Source: Yuukianura sp. NJ FZ-2021 (taxonomy: Eukaryota). Taken from it: 64,000 bases of DNA. Position numbers and translations under genes: made by a program. The notes beneath the pieces are model-generated. The model was not told where the DNA came from, did not search any database, and saw nothing but the letters and a program-made list of their open reading frames with translations. Location of the stretch: NCBI GenBank assembly GCA_046563655.1, contig CM102288.1, positions 3,286,001 to 3,350,000 of the forward strand, given 5' to 3'. Within the stretch, counting starts at the first letter, position 1; the number at the start of each line of letters is the position of its first letter. Shown here one piece after another: positions 3,965 to 23,200 of this stretch.

Positions 3965-6178
3965 CTAGAAATCAAGAACGTACGATGCTTCTGTAGTTTT
4001 AGAATTCAACTTTCTTCCACTTCGCTTGTTCTGCGAATTGGAACTTATACCTTGATAGGCACTATGAGCTCTGCGTCCACCGTACGTTCCCTGGCCATCT
4101 CCATATCGTCGCAGACAGTTGTTACTTTTGGTTCGGAAACAGTCGTCACTGTCTCTCGAATAGCCTGGTCGGCCTCTGTCATTTTGGTTGTTCTCTTCAG
4201 GTCTGTTCCAGCGGTTATCCAAATCTTGAAAATCTTGACCCCTCCCAGGGTCGTTTTCATAATTTTGTTTAGTTCGAGTCGGAATGTCATTGTTCCTGAG
4301 TGGTCTGTTCCTTGGATACTGCTCAATTTCTGGAGTATAAACTCCAGGATTGGGACCAGGCGGAAGGTCTTCATAACCGTCCGGTGGAGGTGCCAATGGC
4401 GGAGTATTTGGCAGCGACGGAGGCAGGTAGTTTCCGCCACCGGGATACCCAAACAGTATTTCCTGGATAGATTTAGGATGATTTGGATTGAACGGATCCA
4501 GCGGCCCTATGGCAATTCCATTACCGTCGTATACCTTCCCTGGAGGCTCGTTCTGGAACAGTTCGTCTTCTTTTCTATGTGTTAATTGAGGTTGCTGTGG
4601 AACAGGAGCAGGCGGCATGTACATAAGTGCTGGGTAAGGCTGCTGTTGGGGATACCCGCCGAAACCTGCTCCAGCGAAAAAATTGGGCTGGATTTGTCCG
4701 TTCTGATTCGGCAGGAAATTTGAATTTGGCGCCGAGAAGCCAAAGTTCGGCAGAACCGGTCCGATTCCAAATGGAACTCCGCCTCCATTTGTAAAACCAT
4801 TTCCTATTGGTCCTCCAGGAAATCCGATATTACCAGCCTGTTGAAATTGCAAACCGTTTCCTATTGGTCCGCCGTTTGTAAAACCGTTTTCGATTGGTCC
4901 ACCAGGAAACCCGCCAATTCCAGCTGGTATACCGTTTTGATCTTGTTGAAACTGTAAACCGTAGCCAATACCGTTTCCTTGTACCGGTTCATACCTTGGT
5001 CTTCTGGAACTGTATTGAGAGGCTGCACCAATTCCAAATTCCAGCGACGGTTGAAACGGTACATCATCAAAGCCAGAGGACCTTGACATGATCAACGGGT
5101 TCAGGTCAATCGGGGAAGGTCGTATGATAGGATCAGCTTGGAACGGTTCGAAAATCGGCGGTGTTGGGACATTATGCGGAACAGGGTAGACGAGATACTC
5201 CAAATTGTTTCCAGAGAATCCAACTGACCAGTACGCAAGTAACGTATCACCATGATGGATTAAGTGACAGTCACAAGCTGTTGACGGAACTTGATTGGAT
5301 TCGGAGACACTCGGATCAACAAACTCCGACATTCTTAGCTCAATTCCTTGTTCGGTATTGACCATCACTCCGGAAATCCGTTCATTCGGATGAGAAATTA
5401 CACCGAGTGAAGTCAACAGAGTTTCGTCGGCTGGAATTTCTCGACGAGTGGACGCAGCGATTGCTTGCAGCGGTGCTTCGTAAATCTTTTCCCAAAGGAC
5501 TTTTGCTTTGCCACTTTTGTTTTTGGCGCCTTCGGCAACTTGGTTTTTAAAACTCTGAAACAGAACTCTGCGTAGTGTCGTTCTCCAGTCCGACGGCATT
5601 TGACGAATCGCTTCATTTTCAGAAGTTTTTAGATCATTTTCTGGTTCCCGCTCTTTCGAATCGACGTCTGGCGCTTCAGAATCAGCGTCGGTGGCTTCAT
5701 TATCAGTGCCGTCTGACCTCAATGCCAAATCAGTGTCGACATCAGCTTCTCCTTCAGCGGCCGAACTATAGTTTGCTGTTCTTTTCAATTTGCCGTTGAT
5801 ACTTTCTGTTTTGACGTCCATCGGAAACAGAAAACTTTGAATTTTAGCGCCTGCTGCTTGTTTCACGTCGTCACTGCTCCCTGCCTCGTCAATCGCTTCT
5901 AGACTTTTGCCTTCCCGCTTTTGACCTTTGACCTCTAAAACATCCTTAGTTTCAGAAGGTAGTGGCAGCAGAGACATGTCCGGGTAGCAGCATGGCGGAA
6001 GTCCAAATTGGCCTAAGTTAGCTGCTTGAACAAAATCACTTATGCGCAGAATCACCAGTCCGGAGAACCAAACCTGTTGAAAAAAATGGAAATCGCAAGT
6101 TCAGACCACTTTCTTCAATGAAAATCACAACTAATTTTTATTTTAACTTACCAAATGTGCGAAAAGTGAAATTCGCAT
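3965..6178 (-). CDS. Uncharacterised, probably secreted Gly/Pro/Asn/Gln-rich protein (~711 aa)
   Basis: Exon 6178-6152 (MRISLFAHL, GTAAGT donor) spliced to 6073-3965 (VWFSGLVILRISDFVQA...) forms a signal-peptide-like N-terminus; 2.1-kb open exon; GFPGGPI(E/G)NGFTNGG repeats. Confidence 0.75.
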
Positions 6179-9162: not shown

Positions 9163-11068
9163 TCAAACCTCCTTAGCTGCTTTTTTGATTGGAGGAGGTT
9201 GAGGCGGAGTTGTCGCACCGGTATCGGATTGTTTCGGTTTCACAGGATTCGAATCTTGAGCAGAATTTTCCTTCGCACTTTTTGAAGCTGCTTTACCGGT
9301 ATTTGGTCCTTCTATAGAAAACATTGGTGCTGGAGCGGCAATTTGTGCCTTGGAAGTTAGTTGGTTGGGGTCTTGACCTTTGACCTTTACAGTAATTAAG
9401 GCTTGTCTCACTCGTTCCTGTTCCGTTTCTTGGGCGGATCGTTTCATTGGAAACGGAAGCTCCAAATCACTTAGGTTGGGTGTCTGGTGATGGTGTTCAG
9501 CTGAATCATGGTGTGATGACTGATTAGACTCTGCGACGACACTGCTGCTGCTTCCGGATCCAGAAATGATAACAGGCGGAGTTGGAGTTGATTCCGTAGT
9601 TTTTGAACTGGTCTTGGATTCAGCGATTTTCGGTGTTTTGACCTCCTGCTTTGGAATTTCTTGAGGCAGGACAGGAGTGCTCACAATGGTAGGTCCTGCC
9701 AAGGGCGCTTTGGCTTCTCGACTGCCGCTGATTTTCTTGCCAACTTTCTCTAGGCCGTAGCGAATGGCCTTGAAGGGACCGGCAGTAAGAATCCCTTGAG
9801 CTGTTTGACGAATGCTGGATTTCCAAACAATGTTTCCAAGGGCTCTCCGCACAAGTCCTCCAAGGCCAGGCAAAGATGAAATCTCAACCAAGACTTCTTC
9901 AACGTCATGCAGAGCCGGGTCCCTTCCAGACTCTCGACAAATACATCGCTAAAATTACCGAAATCTACTCAATTTGAATTACAAGCAAATCATATGAAGG
10001 AATAAAACCCAACCTGTAGGTGGAAAGGGAGATGAAGAAGGTGGTTCAGTCGCGCTTTAGAACTTGTATCTTGCACAAAGGTGTCTAATGTGTGTCCTCC
10101 CTTGAACTAGAATCAAAATGTCAAAAGTTTAACAAAAATGTTCACTTTTGTTAAAATTAAATAATTACCTCGATCAAAGGATTCAGTTCTTGGATAAGTG
10201 GTTGATATATTTCGTCAAAATGTGGTACATTCCCGGCCAGAATGTTCTTTACTTTATTCGGATTCTCTCCAAAACGCATTCGAGAGTCACCTGAATCAAA
10301 AATTCATTGGTAAAACGTTGACTAACTGATTGACAAAACTGAAGAAAACTTACCAAAATATGACAATTCTGTTATCCCATGATAGAGATCCCACTTTTTA
10401 CACTGTGTTGGAAGTTGAAGCAAGACGGTTCGAAGGGCTGAAAGACGATTTTGCTTGAGACATTTGACAATATGGGAGTTTGTTGGTGGACTCAGTTCAA
10501 GGACTGGTTTATGGAGTCGACCAGAGATATAAGCGTGAGTCCAATTTTTCAAATCATCCAGCAGGGTATGGGTTGAAATCACACCGTATTTGATCATCTA
10601 CCAAAAATCCGAATTGGAATTAGAACATTTCAATTGTTCTATGTATTTTCGCACCAAATAATTGTAAATAGTCTCACGCGATCTTCCACTTTGACTAGAG
10701 TATTATAGTAAACACCAGCGGCCCACGTTTCCTGGATTTTGACAATCCTAGCTGTGCCCAAGTACTTGAGAAAAGAGTAATGCTTAGGATTTCGACCGAT
10801 GTTTTCTGAGTGCCATTTTGCGGGATTGTCCACAACAAAAATGAGGTCAATCATCTAAAAACCAAAGTCATTAAATACAAATAGTGAATTGGGATATCGA
10901 TTTAGCCAAGAAATAGTACGTCCAGAACATTGGAGATAGGAGTAAAAATGGTTACCTTACTTTTCCTAACGGCTGATTCTTCTGACGGAACACTGCTGAT
11001 CCGTATGCAAACGAGTATGCGTTGGGCGGAAAGTGTCGTAGCAATGACTGGATACCCTCAACCGCCAT
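9163..11068 (-). CDS. TAMM41: Mitochondrial phosphatidate cytidylyltransferase Tam41 with long C-terminal extension
   Basis: ATG 11068; FAYGSAVFRQ, MIDLIFVVDNP.KWH.EN...NPKHYSFL, GVYYNTLV, IKYGVIST, YISGRLHKPV, GDSRMRFGENPNKVKNI, SSIRQTAQGILTAG motifs across GT-AG exons. Confidence 0.95.
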
Positions 11069-11493
11069 CTTTAGCGTTAGCTTAGAGCTTTGAGACGTAC
11101 AGGAACAGGAAGTAGGAATCTTCAAAACTTCAACCCGAAAGTGCGAATTCCCCGAAAAGTGAACCTGTTGAGTTGAGTCGCTAAATAAAATTCTAACAAT
11201 TCTACCATTTACTAAATAAGTTTAACTTACAGAATTATTTTCACCTTGACCTCGTGACCTTTACAGTGCAAACTCTGTCGCTTTTCATTTTTTTAGTGCT
11301 TGACCCCTTGACTTTTCAAATCCAAATAACAAATGAATGGAAATTTAACCTTTTTGACAACACGAAAGTAATTTCCCGCGCTCCCGGTTTGAAAAGGTGT
11401 CTCATTGAGCAATTCTGTCTAAACGCGGTTTTAAAACTAGAATTTGAACAGAGCGTTTTCTGAACAAGGACATTGACCTCTGTTTTCAAATCT

Positions 11494-13996
11494 TTATTTC
11501 CGTCTTTGGTGACACCACCGCCATAAGCTCGATGCATCTGGATACCGTTTCTCAACGTATCGCGTAGGGAGTTGACAGGACATGAATGTTGTGTTACTCG
11601 ACAGCGGTATAAGACGTCTCAATAGCAGTGTAGCATAAAACGTTCTCAGGAACATTGGGCAGAAATCATTCAGGTACTTCATGAAATTCCTACTGGATTG
11701 GTACAGGTTCTGGACCGTCCTGTCAGGGTAAACTGATCGCCGAAGCCAATGCAGAACGAATTGCAAAACGTCTGCTAACAGCTCTGAATAGATGATCCAA
11801 AACCCCCAGATTTTCGTATTGAAGCGACTTGTAAAAATGGTCAGGCGAAGGATATCCAGAAAGTCGAAAGCGAAGCAGGGAACACACGAAGGTCGTAGTC
11901 TTTTCAAACCGATACAGAAATTGAACAATACCTTTTGAAATCATAGAAAATCAGGGATGTAATGAACTTAAGTTGGAGTAAGTTGACTATGGTTGTTACC
12001 TCATTCGTGTCGGACCTAAACACGACACTGTCCAGAACTTCGTTCAAGAAGATAGCCAGTAACTGCTTGAACGCTATTGCCATAAACTCCGGACCGCTTC
12101 GGTCGATATCGCCCAAAGCGTTGTGTATTATAAATCCAATAATCTGCTTCAAGAGTTCCAGCTTATCGAATTCTGTATCGTCTTTTTCCAGGAAGTAGAT
12201 AAAAACAGTTAGAAATCTTGCCCAAGCACTAAAGAATTCATGTCGTTCCTCTATTTGATCTGGCTTTAAATAAAAATAAGATTACCTAAACTTCAATTAA
12301 CTTAATTATGTTAATGGTAAACTAACTTTTGTGGACTTACTTGACAAAAGTGCCTATGATACATGATGACATCCATGTTGACTTCCAGGAACACCAAGAA
12401 CATTTCCCTGGACTTCAAAACTCCCGCCTGTTCCATTTCCCACAACACGTGACCAAAGTCTTCCCGCATGTCGTCAAATGGTGACGATATGTGCTTACGA
12501 TACACAGGGAGCCATATATGGTAGAAGCTTCGGATTGGACTGGAAGGTGCTGGAGAATTTTCAAAAATTGTTCAGAAAAAAAACTCCAAAAATAATAAGT
12601 GACTTTGAAAATTTTGAAGTCTGACCTTCGGCTCCTGGTGGTTCCAACGTCCAACCTGAGCCTAGCAACGCATTAATGACGACGCGTACTCGCATACTAT
12701 GTAGTGCAGGGGTGTTGTACTTGAAACCTTGACTTGTCCTGGCTATTAGTGCCTGAGATTCAGTACTAGCTTGACCTTCCTTGACCTTCTGTAGTTGCAC
12801 AAGTTGCGTTGACCCTTGTGTCCGATTAGCCCCGTACCCAGCGAGTGACGATGGGGGACCCCCTAGTATTATCGTTTTATCTTCTCTTCTTGAAGGTATA
12901 AGTTTTTCTAGAATAACTTTCGATACAGTTGTAGGCGGAATTAGTTTCAAGTTTCTGACTCTCAAGTAGGGTTGGACCAAGATGGCGGACGTTGCGCCCT
13001 TAGAATTCACGGCGTAGCCACTAGGTCTGTCCCCCCTCACGGCACAGTATCTTCTGCGTTTACGAAACGCTGCCTGAAGTTAACGAAAGGTTATTTCCAA
13101 TTATTAATTGAATTTAGCTGAAATTGGAGCAAAAACGGACACGTACGTGGGCCAGGAAGGTGAATCGTTGTGTAGACGTTTTCGGACTTCCAAATACTTT
13201 CAGCTTGTCGTACGCTCGAACTTTTGCTAAGAACTCAGTTACTCCGTGGGGGAGTGGCACTTTATTGTCCTTGGCTAACCTTTGAAGCATATGACGCTAA
13301 AACAATAATGTAATTAGTAAAGTAACTTCAAAACACTTATATTTTAATTGGAAAACTAATTACAGAAAACGTCAGCTGACTGAGACGGATTCCCTTTTTG
13401 GAGCTTTCCTGACCGTCCAGGACAAGATGATGCCTCAAAATTTTTAAGAAAAAGTCCATGGCTTTTGTGTCCTTCCTATTTCGTCGAAGACGTTGAGAAA
13501 CGTCGAGGTCAAATTGTTCAACATTTAGTAAGTTGGCTTTGAGCAGCGTGTCGACCGTGTCAAAGTCCAACAAAAACTCAGGATCCAGCTGACCATGGGT
13601 GTTGATGACATGCTTGAACGAGAAAACGTTTTTTGGTGAGTCGTCGGTCAACAGACTGTCCCCATTCGTTGCTGCACTATCGCCCGATGAAGTGTTAATC
13701 GATTGATTAGAATCGGTCGTCCATGAACAATCAGCTGACGAATTGTTCGTCCACGGAGAATCTGTCCAGTCACCTCCCGTCGATGGATTACAGTTCGGCA
13801 AGTAACCTGTTGATAAATTATCCGTCAATGATGAAATGCCCGGATATGGGCAATCGGGTGTCCATGGACCAGGAGTTGACGAAGTGCTCGTTGACGGACT
13901 ACTTGTTGATGAAACGTTCATAAACCTGGCGTAGTTCGGTGGAGTCACGGCATTTGACGTAGTAGAATGTCTCCTAAATAGCGGAGTTTTGGCCAT
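11494..13996 (-). CDS. Divergent, truncated CNOT1/Not1-derived protein (~713 aa)
   Basis: Six in-phase exons 13996-13364, 13296-13147, 13073-12626, 12549-12341, 12263-12000, 11931-11494; KLELLKQIIGFIIHNALGDIDRSGPEF, FCIGLKRLRPSCVPCFAFDFLDIL, WIIYSELLADVLQF, LYQSSRNFMKYLNDFCPMFL align by eye with remembered CNOT1 C-terminal sequence. Confidence 0.8.
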
Positions 13997-14458
13997 AGGA
14001 AACTGCAAGCGAACTTCACAGATTGTAGCCTAAAGGTCAAACAAATTTAGATTTTTATAAAACGAATAAATAAGTCGAAGAAACGTTTTTTGTTCAAACA
14101 AAATACAATCAAAACAGGTCCAACTTGCAGCGCTTCTCGACGGAGGAGAAGCCCCACCGAGGAGAGGCTGAGATCTTTGACCCGATTGACCTCTAAGTTT
14201 TAACTTCTAAATCGTCGTTATGACATTCTGAACAATTATTACGGAAATTAACTCTAATTTGATTAATTAATTGATTATTAATTTGATTAATTAACTTAAC
14301 ATTTTAATTAACACTTCCAATTTCTTCGTCAAGCGCGACCAAGGCCAAAGGTCAAGAAGAATTTTAGGTTGTGTTTTGCTTTAGTTAAGGTTAAATGTTA
14401 ATTTTATTATAATTTGTTTATAGTTTATTTAAATTATGTTAACTTTTGATTATAACGT

Positions 14459-17400
14459 TTAGTCTATTGATTCCACTTCTTCCTGAATATCCTCCTTGGG
14501 TGATTTGGTTTGACGAGTCTTTTTAGCTTGACCTTTTGACCCCGCTTGACTTTTGATGTACGTAGTTAACTCAATGTAGCCATCCAGGAATTCTTCAATG
14601 TTGAACGCATCTAGGAACTCCTGTCGCTTCTCCAGTAGTGGTGTTGGATCCTCGTTGTGTTTCAGCGTCAGTTCCAGAGCTCTGTAAACATTTTGTGACA
14701 TTTGACCTTTGACCTTTGTCTGAAACCGAGAAATTTACCTGTCCCAGTTCATTGTCTCAATGTTGAGGTCAATCGCTTCAGAAATTTTGCCAGCTTTCAT
14801 CAGCACTTCCTGACCACGCTGTACTCCGTCGACGAAGATCTCTCGCTGAGCTTTCTCGACAGTGTCACCCTGAACTTCCTGGAATGTCAAAGGTCAAATT
14901 GAAAAGTATGTAGTTAGCTAATTGTAAATGATTAATTAAAATTTAATTACACTGAGATTGCTGAGGTATTCCACTTTATCGAAATGCCCGATTTCAGTGA
15001 AACAGATTTCGGCTGTGTCCAACTCTCCACGACTCGTCGCCAATCCAGCCAAAACTCCCCACAGCGTTTGAATCTGAAAAAGTTTCAAAATTTTCTTTTC
15101 AAAAAAAAGTTACTGTTTTTTCAAAATTCTTACGTTTGCGTAGCGGCACAGTCGCCGTGCTTTGCCCCAGTTTCCAGCTGCAACAAACTGATACAGTTGC
15201 GGCACAAATAAACTTCCGGTGGTGCAGATCATTGTTCCATCAGCCTTTTTTGCCTGAATGCAACTCTCGACGTAACTAACAAGTTGTGGAAACGGTCCAG
15301 GGTCACTGAAAAACCAAAGTTAAAGGAGAGGTCACGAGGTCAAAGGTCAAAGGTCAACGACCTTACCCGATTTCCTTTTCTTCTACAGTGTGTTCCAGAA
15401 GGGTTGGATTTACCATCAGAATCTGCGGATAATAGTAAATCCGAACTTTACTTTCCCGAATAGTTGCCAACATGGGTGCATCCGTGTGCCATAAAATTGT
15501 TGCCGTCGCAGATCCAAGTCGCCGCGGCGTTTCAGTCTTGCCTTGTCGCTTGACCACGGTCAAAAACAGGTCAAGACTCTTGTCAATGAAAGCAATTTGT
15601 CGTTCCGTTGGTCCTGTCATGTCATTCTGTGCTAGGGCCACTTGAATGATTTCGGCTTGTGACCGAAGTTCTGTCAACAGGCGACCGTTGTGTGTGTCGT
15701 ACACCCGAATTAGCTTTCGTTCTGATTCGTCAATCAGAGCAACCATGTCTTCTGCCATTGTCGTCGTCCGAACGTTGAGCATCTCCGATTGCATTCCTGG
15801 CCATTTGATTTGCGTCAGCTGACGACCGTCGTAGGATCGGCTGGTGATACCACTGTGTCCACAGACGATAAAATTTCTGAAATTTCGAAACAAAAACAAA
15901 GTTTAAAATTTGACACTCAGAGGTCAAAACTTGGATGTAAAGAAGAATCCAGTGTGAGGAATTCCATAATTTTTGAATTTACCGCTTCGATTGTAGCGTC
16001 AAATAAATTGAATTTGGCTCTTTTAAGTCACAGACCACGTGAATCGGAATGTTGGCAACGCTGTAGATGTACACTTGAGTTGGAAGGACAACGATTAGGT
16101 ATCCATAATTTAACGAAATCTAAAAGTAATCGATTAATTTAATCAAAAATTTTGAAAATTTTACGCTTTTTAAATTTCTAACAGAATTTTTTGTCTTACT
16201 TGAATGACTCTGTCTTGGAATTCCAGCCGATCTTTCGTGTTTGCCTTGAATTCACAAATCGTTACGACATTTTGAGCAGTGAGTGTCGCTTCAACGTTTT
16301 TCCAAACATACGTATGACAAATCACGTTGGCCACAAACACATGACCCACCGATGTCGCTCCAGCAAATTGCGTTCCATCTGAACTCCACTCCAGTGCATA
16401 AACACTTCCGAACTTCGGTGTTTCCACACAGTGTGTCCAGCCATACTGATCGCAGAGTCTGATCATGTCACTTCCTCCGACAGCAAAGAGCGAACCAGAA
16501 GGCGACCACCCCACGGAGGTCACGGGCACTTCTAAGTTACTGCTTGTGTACAAACAACGACCGTCTGGAGCCCACAGTCTATAACGAAAATCCTCCCCAC
16601 CGGACACAATTAGATTGACTGTTGGACTCCATGCTAAGCAGAGGATAAGGCCGTCGTGACCTTTCCATTCCACTGGTCGTGACCCCGCCGAAGTTTGCCG
16701 AATGATCAGAGTCTTGTCGAGACCGTACAGCACAGAACGGCCGTCAGGTCCCCAGGTACATGCGTAGATGGCCATGTGATGCTGAGCAACAACGGAACGC
16801 AACATCCCAGCGCGTGACCAAATCCGAACGAATCCGTCTTCACCCGAAGTCAAAATTTCGGAACCGTTCGGACTCCAGGCAGCACTGATTATAGCACCTA
16901 CAAATTTTTTATAGGAGACAACTTAAAAAACCTTGGCAAACTTTTTTTGAAATGTTTGTTTTTATCATTTTGATTCTTGACCTTGGTGAGCCTGGACAGT
17001 TTTTTCAAGACGGTTGCCTTTGCCATAGAGGTAGAACGATCCATGCGTAGCCGTTATGAGCAAAAGTTCATTGACCTTTCGCCCTCCGGAGGTCACTGGT
17101 CCACCAATTCCTTGCGGAGGCCATTTCATGGACACTGGATACACGTCTTGCGCAAGCTCAATGATCGAAGAAGTCTCGTTTGTCACCAAGTCCCACCGGA
17201 TTACTTGATGGTCGTCACTGAAATTTCAAAAACATAAAAATTTCAAATTTCAAACTAAATTTTGAAGGTCGTTGACCTCACCCGCAAGAAATGACCTCAT
17301 CCACGCCATTCCAAATTACGGAAGTGGCGGGAGACGAGTGATAAGCCTCTTCTTGGTCAAACGTTATCCGAATGTCCAACATTTTTACAACTTATTCAAA

Positions 17401-17792: not shown

Positions 17793-20217
17793 TTTTCAAT
17801 ATTCAAAAAATATCAGTTTTCTGAAAAGTAGTTTCGAAATTCAAAATTTTGATGACTGGTTGAAGTGAGACTGTGCCTGTCAGTTATGTCCAGGTGAAAG
17901 GTGACTGATGGACTTTGTCCGTGAGTCACGTCCACTTTCTTCAAAATTTCCACTTGCAGAAAAACCTATAAAAGACTATCGTTTCTCCATTGAAAAAGGC
18001 ACAATAGACTCAAATCCTTGGTGATTTCATTGATCCACAAAGTGTGTGGGTTTTCCATTTCATCAATACTTTTTTAGATGACAACTTCTGAAGTATGTCA
18101 TTGCATGTTCAACTCGTCCAACAAAATATGTTTCTAAAAGTTTCTGTTTCAATTGTCTCCAAAAGTACTGGAAGGGCTGTCCAGAACCTCAAGGATCCAA
18201 TTACATCCTGTCAACTTGTCATCATCATTAAACTTCTTTTGTTTACTCAAGATGCTCCAGTGTTCAATTTCGGATTAATAATGCTCCTCAAGTTTCATGT
18301 TATACTTCAGTACATTTCTTGTTAAGTAACACATAAATCTAAGATTATGGGGGATTCGGATAAATAAAACCAAAACTATTTTTTTTATAATAATTTTAAA
18401 TAAATAAAATATTTACCTTTTTAAATTATTTTAAAATTCAAAATTCTTTTAAAAAATGATTTTTTTTCAAAGTTTCTGTAAAACGCATTAAATTGTAGTA
18501 TTTTCAGCCAATCAACGTTGACTTTTGTAAATTTGTAGATAAGGGTACCAATCTCTATCTGATGGGTACACCGATACTACTTTCGGAGTACTTCAACCAA
18601 ATTAGTTTTTTTTTCGAAAAACTTTTTTTTCAAGATTTTTTTTTTCGATTTGGATTTGAATAGGCCTAGGGTCATAAACTAGGTCTGTAATCCATATGAT
18701 TTTAATCTGAAATGGATTGGGAGAAGAAAACGAGAGAAAGAGAGGTGAATGTGCTTAGAGTATGAGTGAAAGTGTTTCTCGTTTCTGAAGAAAGTGAACC
18801 TACTTGTTAGTGGAAAGAAAAGAGTGTGTAGAGAGAGGGAGAGAATAAGGTTAGGCTAACCCAAAAACCCAACGGTTAGGCTAAACCTAACCGTTAGGCT
18901 AAACCCAGAGCAGCATGAACCACATAAGGAGTGGTGGGGGTTGATGGTGGGGCTTTTGAGGAAAAAGGCGGTGGGGCGCAAGAGCCCAGAAGCCTAAGTT
19001 TCACGAAGGAATTTGAGAGCCTCCTTCCCACTTTCACCTGCAGTCCAAATCGATTCCTATAGGCACAGAGGCAGGGACGGAACTTCACTTTCACTAACCT
19101 AACCAAACAACTATAGTCTTTAAAAAAAAAGTTTTTTGAAAAAAAGAAAGTTGTAACGGAGTGAGTTGGAGGTTGTTAATTGCCCGACTAATCGAAGAGT
19201 TTGGGAAACACAGTGTGTGTAATTGGAAAACCTAAGGTAAAGTTAACCTAATCCAAGTTAGGTTCCAGTTGACACTCACGAAATTATTGGAAAGTGGAGC
19301 ACTTTGACTTTGTCTGATTTGACTTTTCTCAATATTTACTCTAGACAGACAGAACCAATTATTTCTAAAGACTAAAAAGTGAAAAGTCTATAAATTGAAT
19401 AACCTATTAATTATAGTTTTCGAAAAGTGAATCACATTATAAACTTTACGAACAAAAGGAACACACCTCTCTGTCTCCTGTATCGAATGGAACTCAATTA
19501 CTAAAGAAAGGTGAGATCAATAAGTTAAAGTAGTTGCTAAAATTTTGAAAAAAAAAGTTCAAAAAAAAAAATCTGAAAATTTTTCAAAAATCTAAAATTT
19601 TCTGTTCTGATAACGTTTACGCCACACAATGAAAATACAATGCGTTAGAACTAAAATTTTTTCAAATTTCTTTCATTTGTTTTTACAACTGGCGTAAAGT
19701 CATGCTTCAAACTTTCAAAACACTTTTTCAATTTCTTTCTGAAATTTTGAAAAAATGGCGTTACGTGACCTGATTATGGTTTGTTTTCAGTTTTAGTACT
19801 TTTTAGTCTCTAAACAAAACGTCTAACAAATCCTATAGTCCTTTGTACTAGTCTTTGCCAAAATGTCTGCTTATGTTTACCTCTCCCGCCTGTTCCTTAC
19901 CTGCCTTTGAACTTTTTTTTTCTCGAAATTTTGATGATCTGTGAATCTTTTTTGGTGGTGAGACGAAGATGAATTGGTTTTTTCAGATTTTTTAGTTTTT
20001 TTTTGTGAAGAATAAACAAACTGGTGCTATTCTTAAGGTCGTTTTCTCAATTTAGATTTTTACGAGGACTCGCGGATCTGTTGAGGTTTCCTTCCAGCCT
20101 CCTTTGGCTCCCTTCCAGCCAAACACGGTTCATATGGCGCTGTGAGCTCAAGCGACGTAGTCGTGGTCACTTTGTGTCGTTGCAGTTCCTGACTCCGCCT
20201 CCTGCGTCTGCGTCAAA

Positions 20218-23200
20218 ATGCTCAACGTCAATACGAACATGGACGCCGAGAATCGGGTCGTTCTCAACGTCGGTGGCATTCGGCATGAAACGTACAAGGC
20301 AACGCTCAAGAAAATCCCAGCGACGCGCCTCTCCCGTCTAACGGAAGCCCTCGCGAACTACGACCCCATCCTCAACGAATACTTCTTCGACAGACATCCG
20401 GGCGTTTTTGCTCAGGTTTTTCAAAATTTTGAAAAAAAAAACAAAGTTTTTCCAAAATTTTACAATTTTCGTTTTCTAGGTGCTCAATTACTACCGGACG
20501 GGCAAACTCCATTACCCAACTGACGTTTGTGGGCCACTCTTTGAAGAGGAACTGGAATTTTGGGGACTAGATTCAAATCAAGTGGAACCTTGCTGCTGGA
20601 TGACCTACACGCAGGTAAGGTCAAAGGTCAAATTTAGGGTCAAAGGTCAAATGCTAAAATGTTGACCCTGATGCTTACTTTGTTGTTGTTGTTTTTTGAA
20701 GCATCGAGAGACCCAGGAGACGTTGACCGTTCTGGATCGACTTGACCTTGACACGGAGAAGCCCACTGATGAAGAACTAGCGCGAAAGTTTGGATTTGAA
20801 GATGACTATGTTTCTGGTAACTTATCCTGGTGGCAGAAGATGAAACCCCAAATTTGGTCACTTTTTGACGAGCCTTATTCATCTTCTTCGGCCAAAGTAA
20901 GTTATCCGCCATTTTCAAAAATCATTTTCGAAAATCCTGCTTCCCGAAACCTTTGAAAGTTGCGTGGTAGTCATAGTCTCATAAGATTTTAGTAAAAGGC
21001 CTCGACTTTTTTGACGAAAAATTTTATTTAAAAAATTGATTTTTTTTCGCGAAATTATGATTACAGGTAATAGGTGTGATGAGTGTATTCTTTATTGGTA
21101 TTTCAATCCTGTCATTTTGCCTCAAAACCCATCCGGACATGAGAGTTCCTCAAATCAGGTCAGAGCAAATTTGAAGATTGCTTTTTTCATAAACTTTTTA
21201 TACTTTGTTTTTGTCTGAAATGGTGAACTTTTTTTTGAAATTTCTATTTTTTAGAAATATCACAGTGAACACTTCCCGGAACACGACGAGTTGGACACTG
21301 GACAAGTCGGGGACAAATGCCCACGAGGCCTTCTTCTACATTGAGTGCGTGTGCAATGCTTGGTTTACTTTTGAGATTCTCGTGCGCTTCATCTCTGCCC
21401 CCTCCAAGTGCGCCTTCATTCGAGCCTCCGTCAACATCATCGACTATGTCGCCACTCTCTCGTTCTACGTTGACCTCATCCTCCAGAAGTACGCAGCACA
21501 TGTAGAGAATGCTGACATACTCGAGTTCTTCTCCATCATCCGCATCATGCGGCTCTTCAAACTCACCAGGCACTCCTCGGGGCTCAAGATACTCATTCAG
21601 GTCAGCAGGTCACCCTGTCCGCTGCCTGGAGGAAGGTGTCTTAATTGTAAAATTTTGAATTTTCGCAGACTTTTAGAGCCTCCGCGAAGGAACTGACCCT
21701 GCTCGTCTTCTTCCTGGCACTCGGAATCGTCGTGTTCGCGAGTTTAGTGTACTACGCAGAGCGGATTCAAGCTAATCCGAAGAACGACTTCAACAGCATT
21801 CCTCTGGGGCTGTGGTGGGCACTGGTCACCATGACGACAGTGGGTTACGGTGATATGACACCCAAGACATACATGGGCATGTTCGTAGGGGCACTGTGTG
21901 CCCTTGGCGGTGTCCTTACCATTGCACTTCCAGTACCCGTCATCGTCTCCAACTTCACCATGTACTACTCACACACGCAGGTCAGCACGGTCGCTGGAAA
22001 TTTCAAAGTTACTTTCAAAATTTCTAAAGTTTTGATTTTGACCTTTGACCTTTGACGTTTTAGGCTCGTGCTAAACTTCCAAAGAAGCGCAGACGCGTGA
22101 TACCCGTAGAGACGCTGCGACCACCGCCGGGACCACGGTCCGGTCCAGGACAGCTCGGAGCTAACCAAGGACCGGGCGGCAGTGGCAGCACACAGCCACG
22201 ACGCATGAACGCACTCAAACAAAATAACCCTGCAAAAGACCTTCTCTCTACACCAAAAATGGGTAAGGTCAAAGGTCAAACTTTCTTTTTTTCAAAATAA
22301 AAAAAAGAAAAAAGTTTTTTTTTTCAACAATTTGTGACGCTAAATTGAATAATACTGTTGAATTTTCCAAAATTTTCCAAATTGAATCAACTATGGAACT
22401 ACTATTGCATACCAAAGAAAACTTAAGAAAACACATAAAATATGGACAGAGTTCAACTTAACATTACATTGCAAACTTTCAACAAAAACTTACGCATCTT
22501 TTACAAATGCTTTGCAAAATTTTTGGCAGAAAGATTTTGCAAATAAATAATTTTGCACGTAGAGATGCACACGGTTATGGTAGTGAAGTGAGATTTATTT
22601 AGTTGAACTGTTGCATCATTTACTAATCAAAAGCGTTTTTCAAAAAATCTAACCACAAATTTCAAAAAATTAAAAAAGAAACACCTAAAAATTGCGCTAA
22701 TGGCACTAATTTGCACTTTTAACTAACACAACTAACCTTAATTGTTAATTACTTTTGATTTGTGTCCTTTATTGCTAGCAATGAAAAAGGCTTGGAATCG
22801 TGCTCAAGATCGACAAACGGGGCAAAACAACGCCTGAGACTTATTGCAAAAAATTTCATTTGCAAAAATTCCTACTAATCAACATAACCTTACTACTCTA
22901 GTCCCTTAACTAACGTAACCTAACCTACTTTTTCACAAAAACTAACCTAATTTCAATTACAACTAAAGTCTCCAGTTTCAAATTTCAAAAAAAATGTGCA
23001 AAATTTGTTCAAAACACTTCTTCAACTAAAAAGGTGCTGGCTGCTTAAAATTCCTAAAAGCAAAATAACACTGGCAAGGTACACTTTGACCTGAAGTTGA
23101 CCTCTCAATGTTTTTAATTGTTAATTTAATTAATTAGTTTAACTTTAGTTTAATTGTATAGCCAGTGTCAATTTTGTCCCGCTTTTCTAATGTTCAGCTT

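Follow-up and report, generated by a model that had tools for sequence, protein, structure and literature searches.

The canonical CNOT1 protein, scaffold of the CCR4-NOT mRNA-decay complex, has about 2000-2400 amino acids (aa), and the question raised by a gene of Yuukianura sp. NJ FZ-2021 that encodes 713 aa is how much of this scaffold it holds and what such a product could do. The gene lies on the minus strand at 11494-13996 of a 64,000-nucleotide (nt) stretch of contig CM102288.1 (assembly GCA_046563655.1, positions 3,286,001 to 3,350,000); the whole stretch is referred to as the window, and all coordinates are those of the window. An initial annotation had described the gene as intact and as derived from part of CNOT1. 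Judged from its sequence, the gene is almost certainly derived from NOT1 and truncated. The reading preferred here, to which a probability of roughly 0.5 is given, goes further and takes the gene to be translated into a truncated and rapidly evolving NOT1 paralog, one that may bind partners of the NOT module without docking of deadenylases.

NOT1 ancestry of the small protein

The coding region (13996-11494, minus strand), assembled by script, consists of six exons that join to 2142 nt and comprise 713 codons and a TAA stop codon, with no internal stop. Introns 1-5 measure 67, 73, 76, 77 and 68 nt, all five are bounded by GT and AG, and the reading frame is maintained across them, with phase 0 for introns 1, 2, 4 and 5 and phase 1 for intron 3. 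The coordinates, strand, exon count and length of about 713 aa given in the initial annotation were therefore retained, whereas its description of the exons as in-phase was dropped, as intron 3 is of phase 1.

The translations of all six exons were scanned individually against Pfam. Exon 6 (11494-11931, minus strand; aa 569-713 and the stop codon), which holds the final helices of the first subdomain of the NOT1 SH domain (SHD) followed by a tail without matches, scored 29.4 bits against Not1 (PF04054; E 5.2e-7, model positions 23-122 of 372), above the curated cut-off of 22.7 bits by which NOT1 homologs are recognized. Exon 1 (13364-13996, minus strand; aa 1-211) opens with a Ser/Thr/Pro/Asn-rich stretch without matches (aa 1-129) and continues into the start of a connector-like part (aa 130-211); it matched NOT1_connector (PF23590; 23.9 bits, E 3.2e-5, aa 138-196 on model positions 112-169 of 207) and ARM_Cnot1 (PF25097; E 1e-4), in both cases below a 27-bit cut-off. 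No Pfam family was found on exon 2 (13147-13296, minus strand; aa 212-261), within which the connector-like part ends, or on exon 3 (12626-13073, minus strand; aa 262-410 and the first base of codon 411), an insert that aligns, by its last few residues only, with the start of the SHD. Exon 4 (12341-12549, minus strand; the remainder of codon 411 to aa 480), which encodes the first SHD-like helices, and exon 5 (12000-12263, minus strand; aa 481-568), which encodes the middle helices of the first SHD subdomain, gave chance-level Pfam matches only (E 0.14 and 0.31, respectively). A search of the PDB with exon 6 retrieved the human CNOT1 chains 5fu6_A, 4cqo_A and 4c0d_A (E 2.2e-4 to 3.2e-4), residues 3-98 of the exon aligning with residues 191-287 of 5fu6_A; phmmer searches of the PDB with exons 1, 5 and 4 yielded no matches, even at E 1 to 10.

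When exon 6 was used in a phmmer search of 1,835,955,588 representatives, one match was obtained at E<=0.001, the 308-aa NOT1 fragment P0001 (36.9 bits, 37% identity), which as a query led in turn to 520 NOT1 proteins at E<=1e-10. From the 120 of these that were listed, the last 900 or fewer residues of the 99 proteins of at least 700 aa were used to build a C-terminal NOT1 profile of 1001 positions, leaving out the 21 shorter listed proteins and P0001. The spliced protein scored 63.4 bits against this hidden Markov model (E 8.8e-22, Z=1) over two domains in collinear order, aa 130-242 on profile positions 342-445 (16.8 bits) and aa 414-662 on positions 472-721 (46.2 bits), and hhalign gave a probability of 96.9% (E 1.4e-10) for its match to NOT1. 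The profile alignments were continuous over the exon 1/2, 4/5 and 5/6 junctions, and hhalign also spanned the 3/4 junction, pairing the conserved 'DPPGL' of the SHD start with a motif from the last part of exon 3. As the NOT1 alignment is unbroken over four of the five splice junctions, it provides independent support for the splice model.

Controls consisted of 500 shuffles per segment, scored on the same C-terminal profile. The connector-like aa 130-261 (21.0 bits; best shuffle 3.8), exons 4 and 5 together (11.0 bits), exon 5 (6.1 bits) and exon 6 (21.4 bits) each scored higher than all 500 of their shuffles. Exon 4 by itself was marginal (-0.1 bits, 3/500 shuffles as good), exon 3 reached -0.7 bits (4/500), aa 1-129 were at chance level (-4.9 bits, 145/500), and aa 663-713 alone gave no score, with 500/500 shuffles as good. 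The resemblances to the connector domain and to the first half of the SH domain, both originally noted by eye, hold up under these controls, and the significant matches to Pfam, to the profiles built here and by hhalign, together with the shuffles, bear out derivation from part of CNOT1.

Further definition of the retained parts was obtained with a full-length NOT1 profile of 1910 positions, built from 32 listed proteins of at least 1800 aa. It matched just aa 136-243 (positions 1287-1385) and aa 416-667 (positions 1404-1656). No match was seen at positions 1-1286, which hold the N-terminal HEAT region, CN9BD/DUF3819 and the first half of the connector, or at positions 1657-1910, which correspond to the second SHD unit, and no piece of that unit was found within the window. 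The MIF4G domain, where CAF1/CCR4 and DDX6 dock, was found neither as PF16415 on the six exons at E<=1 nor with the full-length profile, and the CAF40/CNOT9-binding three-helix bundle (DUF3819, PF12842) was likewise matched by neither Pfam nor that profile. A six-frame scan of the window, covering 1672 open pieces of at least 25 aa, recovered exons 6, 1 and 5 of this gene (E 2.6e-6, 0.004 and 0.42) and, outside it, three chance-level rows (E 0.43-8.8); further NOT1 exons in the window were accordingly rejected, none being better than E 0.4. The profile, Pfam and the window scan therefore agree with the annotated absence of the MIF4G/CAF1-binding and CNOT9-binding regions and of the second SH half.

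Residue positions were related to human CNOT1 through a fish CNOT1 fragment (P0109), of which residues 286-820 align one to one with residues 1-535 of 5fu6_A, so that human numbering is approximately P0109 + 1541 for residues from 286 onward. By this mapping, aa 404-663 correspond to human CNOT1 1840-2110 with small gaps only, and aa 130-249 to approximately human 1700-1825, with an uncertainty of up to 11 residues; the human SHD construct spans residues 1833-2361 (PMC4003280). The middle stretch, aa 250-403 (154 aa), has no NOT1 counterpart, in keeping with the roughly 170 unrelated aa described at first, which number 171 between the two profile domains and 154 by residue mapping. For the exon 3 insert, Atlas look-alikes reached a best score of 0.89, which is a lead only, and the Atlas neighbours of exon 5 were generic HEAT/TPR solenoid families with low recognition.

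An AlphaFold model of P0109, made with a 30-sequence alignment, had a mean predicted local distance difference test score (pLDDT) of 75.5. It contains 14 helical elements at residues 289-592, that is, up to about human 2133, followed by a non-helical segment (593-626) and 12 further helical elements up to residue 830. This matches the published layout of the SHD as two perpendicular stacks, named N-SD and C-SD or HEAT 1-6 and 7-10 (PMC4003280, PMC4431670, PMC4032980). The small protein can be aligned with confidence as far as a point within the thirteenth helical element of the SHD. From there, hhalign continues at low confidence, over a deletion of 9 residues, to the counterpart of the linker motif 'RLPDPF' at aa 693, placing the protein end, 20 residues further on, in the linker between the two SHD units. 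On this model, the small protein retains approximately the first helical unit of the SHD and none of the second. The connector domain (MIF4G-like) is not complete either, being represented by its last helices only; it is kept from about fish residue 159 onward, in the middle of helix 152-165 of P0109, and helices 54-145 have no counterpart. An AlphaFold prediction of exon 6 alone, without an alignment, was unusable (pLDDT 47.1). Mapping, full-length profile and fish model thus concur that the protein is truncated, with the second connector half and the first SHD subdomain alone present.

Divergence from NOT1 is very deep. Identity to the 99 NOT1 sequences is 15.9-23.0% over 366 aligned columns, whereas fish CNOT1 has an identity of 35-95% to 29 NOT1 sequences of animal, plant, fungal and algal origin over the corresponding part, a comparison across kingdoms that justifies the term fast-evolving. 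Among columns of the covered region that are invariant in 30 NOT1 sequences, 15/28 are kept, as are 9/28 nearly invariant columns. With an overall identity of about 20%, the retention of 15 of 28 invariant residues indicates that core positions were preferentially kept, although many fixed residues were lost.

Probable selection on the reading frame and rival explanations

Five DNA sequencing runs from two studies cover all or part of the locus, and the contigs of four of them were compared, run X3 being left out. The sample is mixed, and the counts given here refer to the listed variants, namely 40 of 178 differences and 12 of 19 insertions or deletions (indels). Thirty-one of the listed differences were exonic (14 synonymous, 17 non-synonymous) and 9 non-coding. 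With 489 synonymous and 1650 non-synonymous sites, the ratio of non-synonymous to synonymous polymorphism per site (pN/pS) is 0.36, and with a transition bias of 2-4 it is 0.42-0.49 (binomial P 0.005 to 0.04). Of the 12 listed indels none is exonic, their positions being in introns 1-4 or 5' of the ATG (5 independent clusters, P ~4e-4). None of the listed variant rows falls in exons 1 and 2, and the exon 3 insert, with 7 synonymous and 6 non-synonymous variants, varies as coding sequence does. Across 11400-14100, 50 contigs of run X1 fell into identity bands of 99% or more (15 contigs), 95-99% (21), 90-95% (10) and below 90% (4), and contigs differ from the window there by 1% to more than 10%, as in a highly polymorphic population or sample. 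Run X5, recorded under a second organism label, covers parts of the gene with an identity of at least 95%.

An open frame, canonical splice sites, a pN/pS below 1 and listed indels confined to non-exonic positions are all as expected of the intact gene that had been proposed. Purifying selection on the protein is supported by these data and considered probable, and it is likewise probable that the protein is functional. The stronger argument comes from age, as an identity of 20% needs a long time to arise and a 2.1-kb frame with five introns that is still intact is therefore not so by chance.

Several observations nevertheless weigh against the preferred reading. The sequencing runs that match the locus are all DNA, none being recorded as RNA. 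The pN/pS values of 0.36-0.49 are weak, being based on 40 of 178 differences. Thirteen of the 28 invariant NOT1 positions are changed, among them a His-Arg pair at about human 2044-2045. Half a connector domain alone may not fold, and since the NOT2 anchor starts on the absent second SHD unit, a canonical NOT module cannot form. Moreover, no ortholog was found with exon 6 among the 1.84 billion representatives, where the sole match at E<=0.001 was an ordinary NOT1 fragment; a word-index search with exon 6 for longer proteins gave 201 candidates, none at E<=0.001; a metagenome scan with the same exon gave 110 pattern matches, 0 of them confirmed by tblastn; and these protein searches revealed no recognizable exon 6 ortholog in any annotated arthropod. 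The gene is known from one lineage only. How far this reflects true restriction can be gauged from the neighbouring IFT80 homolog (14462-16922, minus strand), whose best relatives are arthropod proteins (cockroach and thrips 49%, cricket 47%, spider 45%). By this measure the source is probably an arthropod or closely related to one, with its own proteome and those of its near kin missing from the databases. As even IFT80 reaches no more than 49%, the source lineage has no close relative among the searched proteins, and the missing orthologs are weak evidence for lineage restriction.

Most of these points would also fit if the gene were a decaying or neutrally drifting partial duplicate, its open frame a leftover or a weakly expressed 'proto-gene' with no selected function. 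The lack of RNA runs and of orthologs in representatives and metagenome contigs, a pN/pS just moderately below 1, the cutting of two domains to half or less and the loss of invariant NOT1 residues all fit such a duplicate. It is nonetheless unlikely, because a history long enough to reduce identity to about 20% has left no stop codons, frameshifts or broken splice sites in the frame, the listed indels avoid exons, synonymous variants are in excess, conserved core positions are preferentially retained, and the truncation falls at a domain boundary and not at a random point.

About as unlikely is a functional protein in which NOT1 helical repeats are re-used outside CCR4-NOT and the N-terminus and the 155-aa insert carry the function, for which Codanin-1 would be a precedent. 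Such re-use would account for the very low identity to NOT1 and the many invariant residues that are gone, for the approximately 45% of the protein (aa 1-129, 250-403 and 694-713) that has no NOT1 counterpart, and for an insert that varies like coding DNA, and CNOT1-like domain sets can serve other pathways (PMC11911400). There is, however, no positive pointer to another pathway, as the exons matched no further Pfam family and Atlas gave no informative neighbour for the insert, and the retained block corresponds exactly to the partner-binding first SHD unit. Finally, it is very improbable that the gene is not a paralog at all, being instead the sole NOT1-type C-terminal gene of the organism, with a scaffold that is split or degenerate, or a piece of some larger gene that was modelled wrongly: although no canonical CNOT1 has been seen so far in an analysis confined to the window, the gene is bounded on the same strand by conserved IFT80 (ending at about 14462) and Tam41/TAMM41 (starting at about 11078) homologs, the ATG is preceded at 33 nt by an in-frame stop, the 64 kb hold no further NOT1-like piece, and an ordinary IFT80 ortholog, at up to 49% identity to insect proteins, argues against a lineage aberrant enough for its essential NOT1 to be only 20% identical and devoid of a deadenylase-binding domain.

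Candidate partners and known precedents

The preferred reading of a truncated NOT1 paralog supposes that part of the NOT1 (CNOT1) scaffold gene was duplicated and that the copy then diverged very deeply. The product would then consist of a new disordered N-terminus (aa 1-129), the last connector helices (aa 130-249), an insert of about 155 aa specific to the lineage and the first SHD helical unit (aa 404 to about 693), and would terminate within the linker that in NOT1 precedes the second SHD unit. The parts it lacks are the docking sites for deadenylases (MIF4G), for CAF40/CNOT9 and for CNOT10/11, together with the second SHD unit.

Published structural work places the anchor of NOT3/Not5 around HEAT 1-5, and that of NOT2 first on HEAT 9-10 and then across HEAT 4-6 (PMC4032980); yeast Not4C contacts HEAT 1-3 (PMC4431670), and the Nanos motif of vertebrates attaches to helices 22-23, which close the SHD (PMC4003280). 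For the small protein, the NOT3 and NOT4 surfaces are taken from these papers at the level of HEAT repeats. On that footing, it could offer the surfaces used by NOT3 and NOT4 and some of the one used by NOT2, so that these partners, or regulators using the same surface, could be bound without bringing a nuclease. It would not be expected to form a canonical NOT module, to bind a Nanos-type motif at the C-SD, or to recruit CAF1/CCR4, DDX6, CAF40 or CNOT10/11. The most economical mechanism would be action as a competitor or an alternative platform for NOT-module partners, and binding of such partners in either capacity is put forward tentatively. The initial annotation, too, had offered a decoy, a modulator or a tissue-specific adaptor of CCR4-NOT as possible roles.

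A more specific proposal, and a somewhat more doubtful one, is that the gene provides an animal lineage with a stand-alone 'NOT-module platform', in which the first SHD unit and new disordered parts capture NOT3/NOT4 anchors or regulators. Partners could in this way be drawn off the deadenylase-bearing scaffold, tuning mRNA decay or quality control coupled to translation, perhaps with restriction to the germline or a single tissue. In the N-terminus (aa 1-129; 13610-13996, minus strand), all four tryptophans precede threonine (PWT, DWT, PWT, SWT) in a Ser/Asp/Asn/Pro context. W-motifs of the GW182 type engage pockets of CNOT9 and Argonaute, and we take the Trp-Thr sites to resemble these motifs. 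In a bolder version of the proposal, the protein could be an adaptor that joins such W-pockets to NOT-module partners.

Comparison with known systems underlines how far the gene departs from the scaffold. The small protein is collinear with the second connector half and the first SHD unit of CNOT1/Not1 (approximately human 1700-1825 and 1840-2110/2145), but is 713 aa long instead of about 2000-2400, is devoid of the N-terminal HEAT region, MIF4G, CN9BD/DUF3819, the first connector half and the second SHD unit, shares 16-23% identity with NOT1s where those of different kingdoms share at least 35%, and has a 155-aa insert and a new N-terminus. It is thus, on its sequence, a NOT1 homolog by the Pfam cut-off that lacks every other scaffold-defining feature, and it is not filed as a CNOT1 ortholog.

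According to a preprint, NOT1 is encoded by one gene in most eukaryotes (10.1101/2020.02.12.945477). In the literature searched, the only documented genome with two is that of Plasmodium, whose divergent NOT1 and NOT1-G genes (PfNOT1.1/PfNOT1.2) differ in their developmental roles and are thought to engage separate partners (PMC12746107, PMC8562791, 10.1101/2020.02.12.945477). Both are, however, apicomplexan and described as alternative complex scaffolds, whereas the gene studied here is from an animal, keeps about 18% of the scaffold and cannot dock nucleases. N-terminally shortened isoforms of human CNOT1 and yeast Not1 alter which modules assemble (PMC12746107), but they are made from the single NOT1 gene and retain both the nuclease and the NOT module, unlike the separate, highly diverged gene described here. 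The Plasmodium pair and these isoforms are the nearest precedents. Codanin-1 (CDAN1), which chaperones ASF1, is of ancient origin and has a set of domains that parallels one inside CNOT1 (PMC11911400); it provides a precedent for re-using part of the NOT1 architecture. It comprises the central MIF4G, three-helix bundle and MIF4G-like/MA3 domains without the SHD, and the present gene is the reverse, with the first SHD unit and without the central part. Orthology to Codanin-1 was rejected, as the wrong part of NOT1 is present, no exon has a Codanin-1 Pfam match and no central-NOT1 profile match was seen. A limited search of the open literature on truncated or NOT1-like paralogs found no stand-alone SHD-fragment gene among the papers listed.

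Genomic setting and meaning for the NOT1 family

The surroundings are consistent with a compact gene that stands by itself. A candidate core promoter element, TATAAAAA, lies at 14052-14059 (minus strand), 63 nt 5' of the ATG, and a possible poly(A) signal, AATAAA, overlaps the TAA stop at 11493-11498 (minus strand), each being a consensus match only. An additional upstream coding exon was ruled out by the in-frame stop before the ATG and the end of IFT80 about 460 nt upstream, and a search for tandem and dispersed repeats around the gene revealed no flanking or inverted repeats that would suggest a mobile-element origin. On the other side, the last exon of the Tam41/TAMM41 homolog (9166-9948, minus strand) matches the end of the Tam41_Mmp37 profile in its aa 15-71 only and continues with about 190 Ser/Thr/Pro/Lys-rich residues, an unusually long C-terminal extension for this enzyme.

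Other features were observed elsewhere in the window. A full-model match to Rfam K_chan_RES (RF00485; 21840-21953, plus strand; 97.7 bits, E 2.3e-19) sits inside a Shaker-type voltage-gated K+ channel gene (BTB_2/T1 at 20161-20520, Ion_trans at 21193-22052), which suggests a conserved adenosine-to-inosine editing hairpin in this invertebrate K+ channel, as predicted from sequence. Between about 36000 and 62000, the plus strand has a sustained GC skew of 0.1-0.3 per 2-kb window (cumulative 0.06 to 2.9) with T exceeding A, and contains few long open reading frames, all of low complexity; this region may be a very long intron or a repeat-rich part of a one-strand gene. A single 711-aa open frame at 3968-6100 (minus strand), rich in Gly, Pro, Asn and Gln and without a Pfam family, may be a large low-complexity protein or exon.

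The gene is an unusual offshoot, known from one locus, of a scaffold that is near-universally single-copy and essential; to our knowledge, NOT1 is essential and almost always present as a single copy. Should it be a drifting duplicate, it would merely be a well-preserved partial gene duplication. Depletion of one NOT-module subunit co-depletes the others (PMC4032980). If the preferred reading of a translated paralog is true, a natural first-SHD-unit protein would be a ready-made tool for that surface alone, that is, for NOT3/NOT4 anchoring and complex stoichiometry, and the gene would be an example of regulation through a truncated scaffold paralog.

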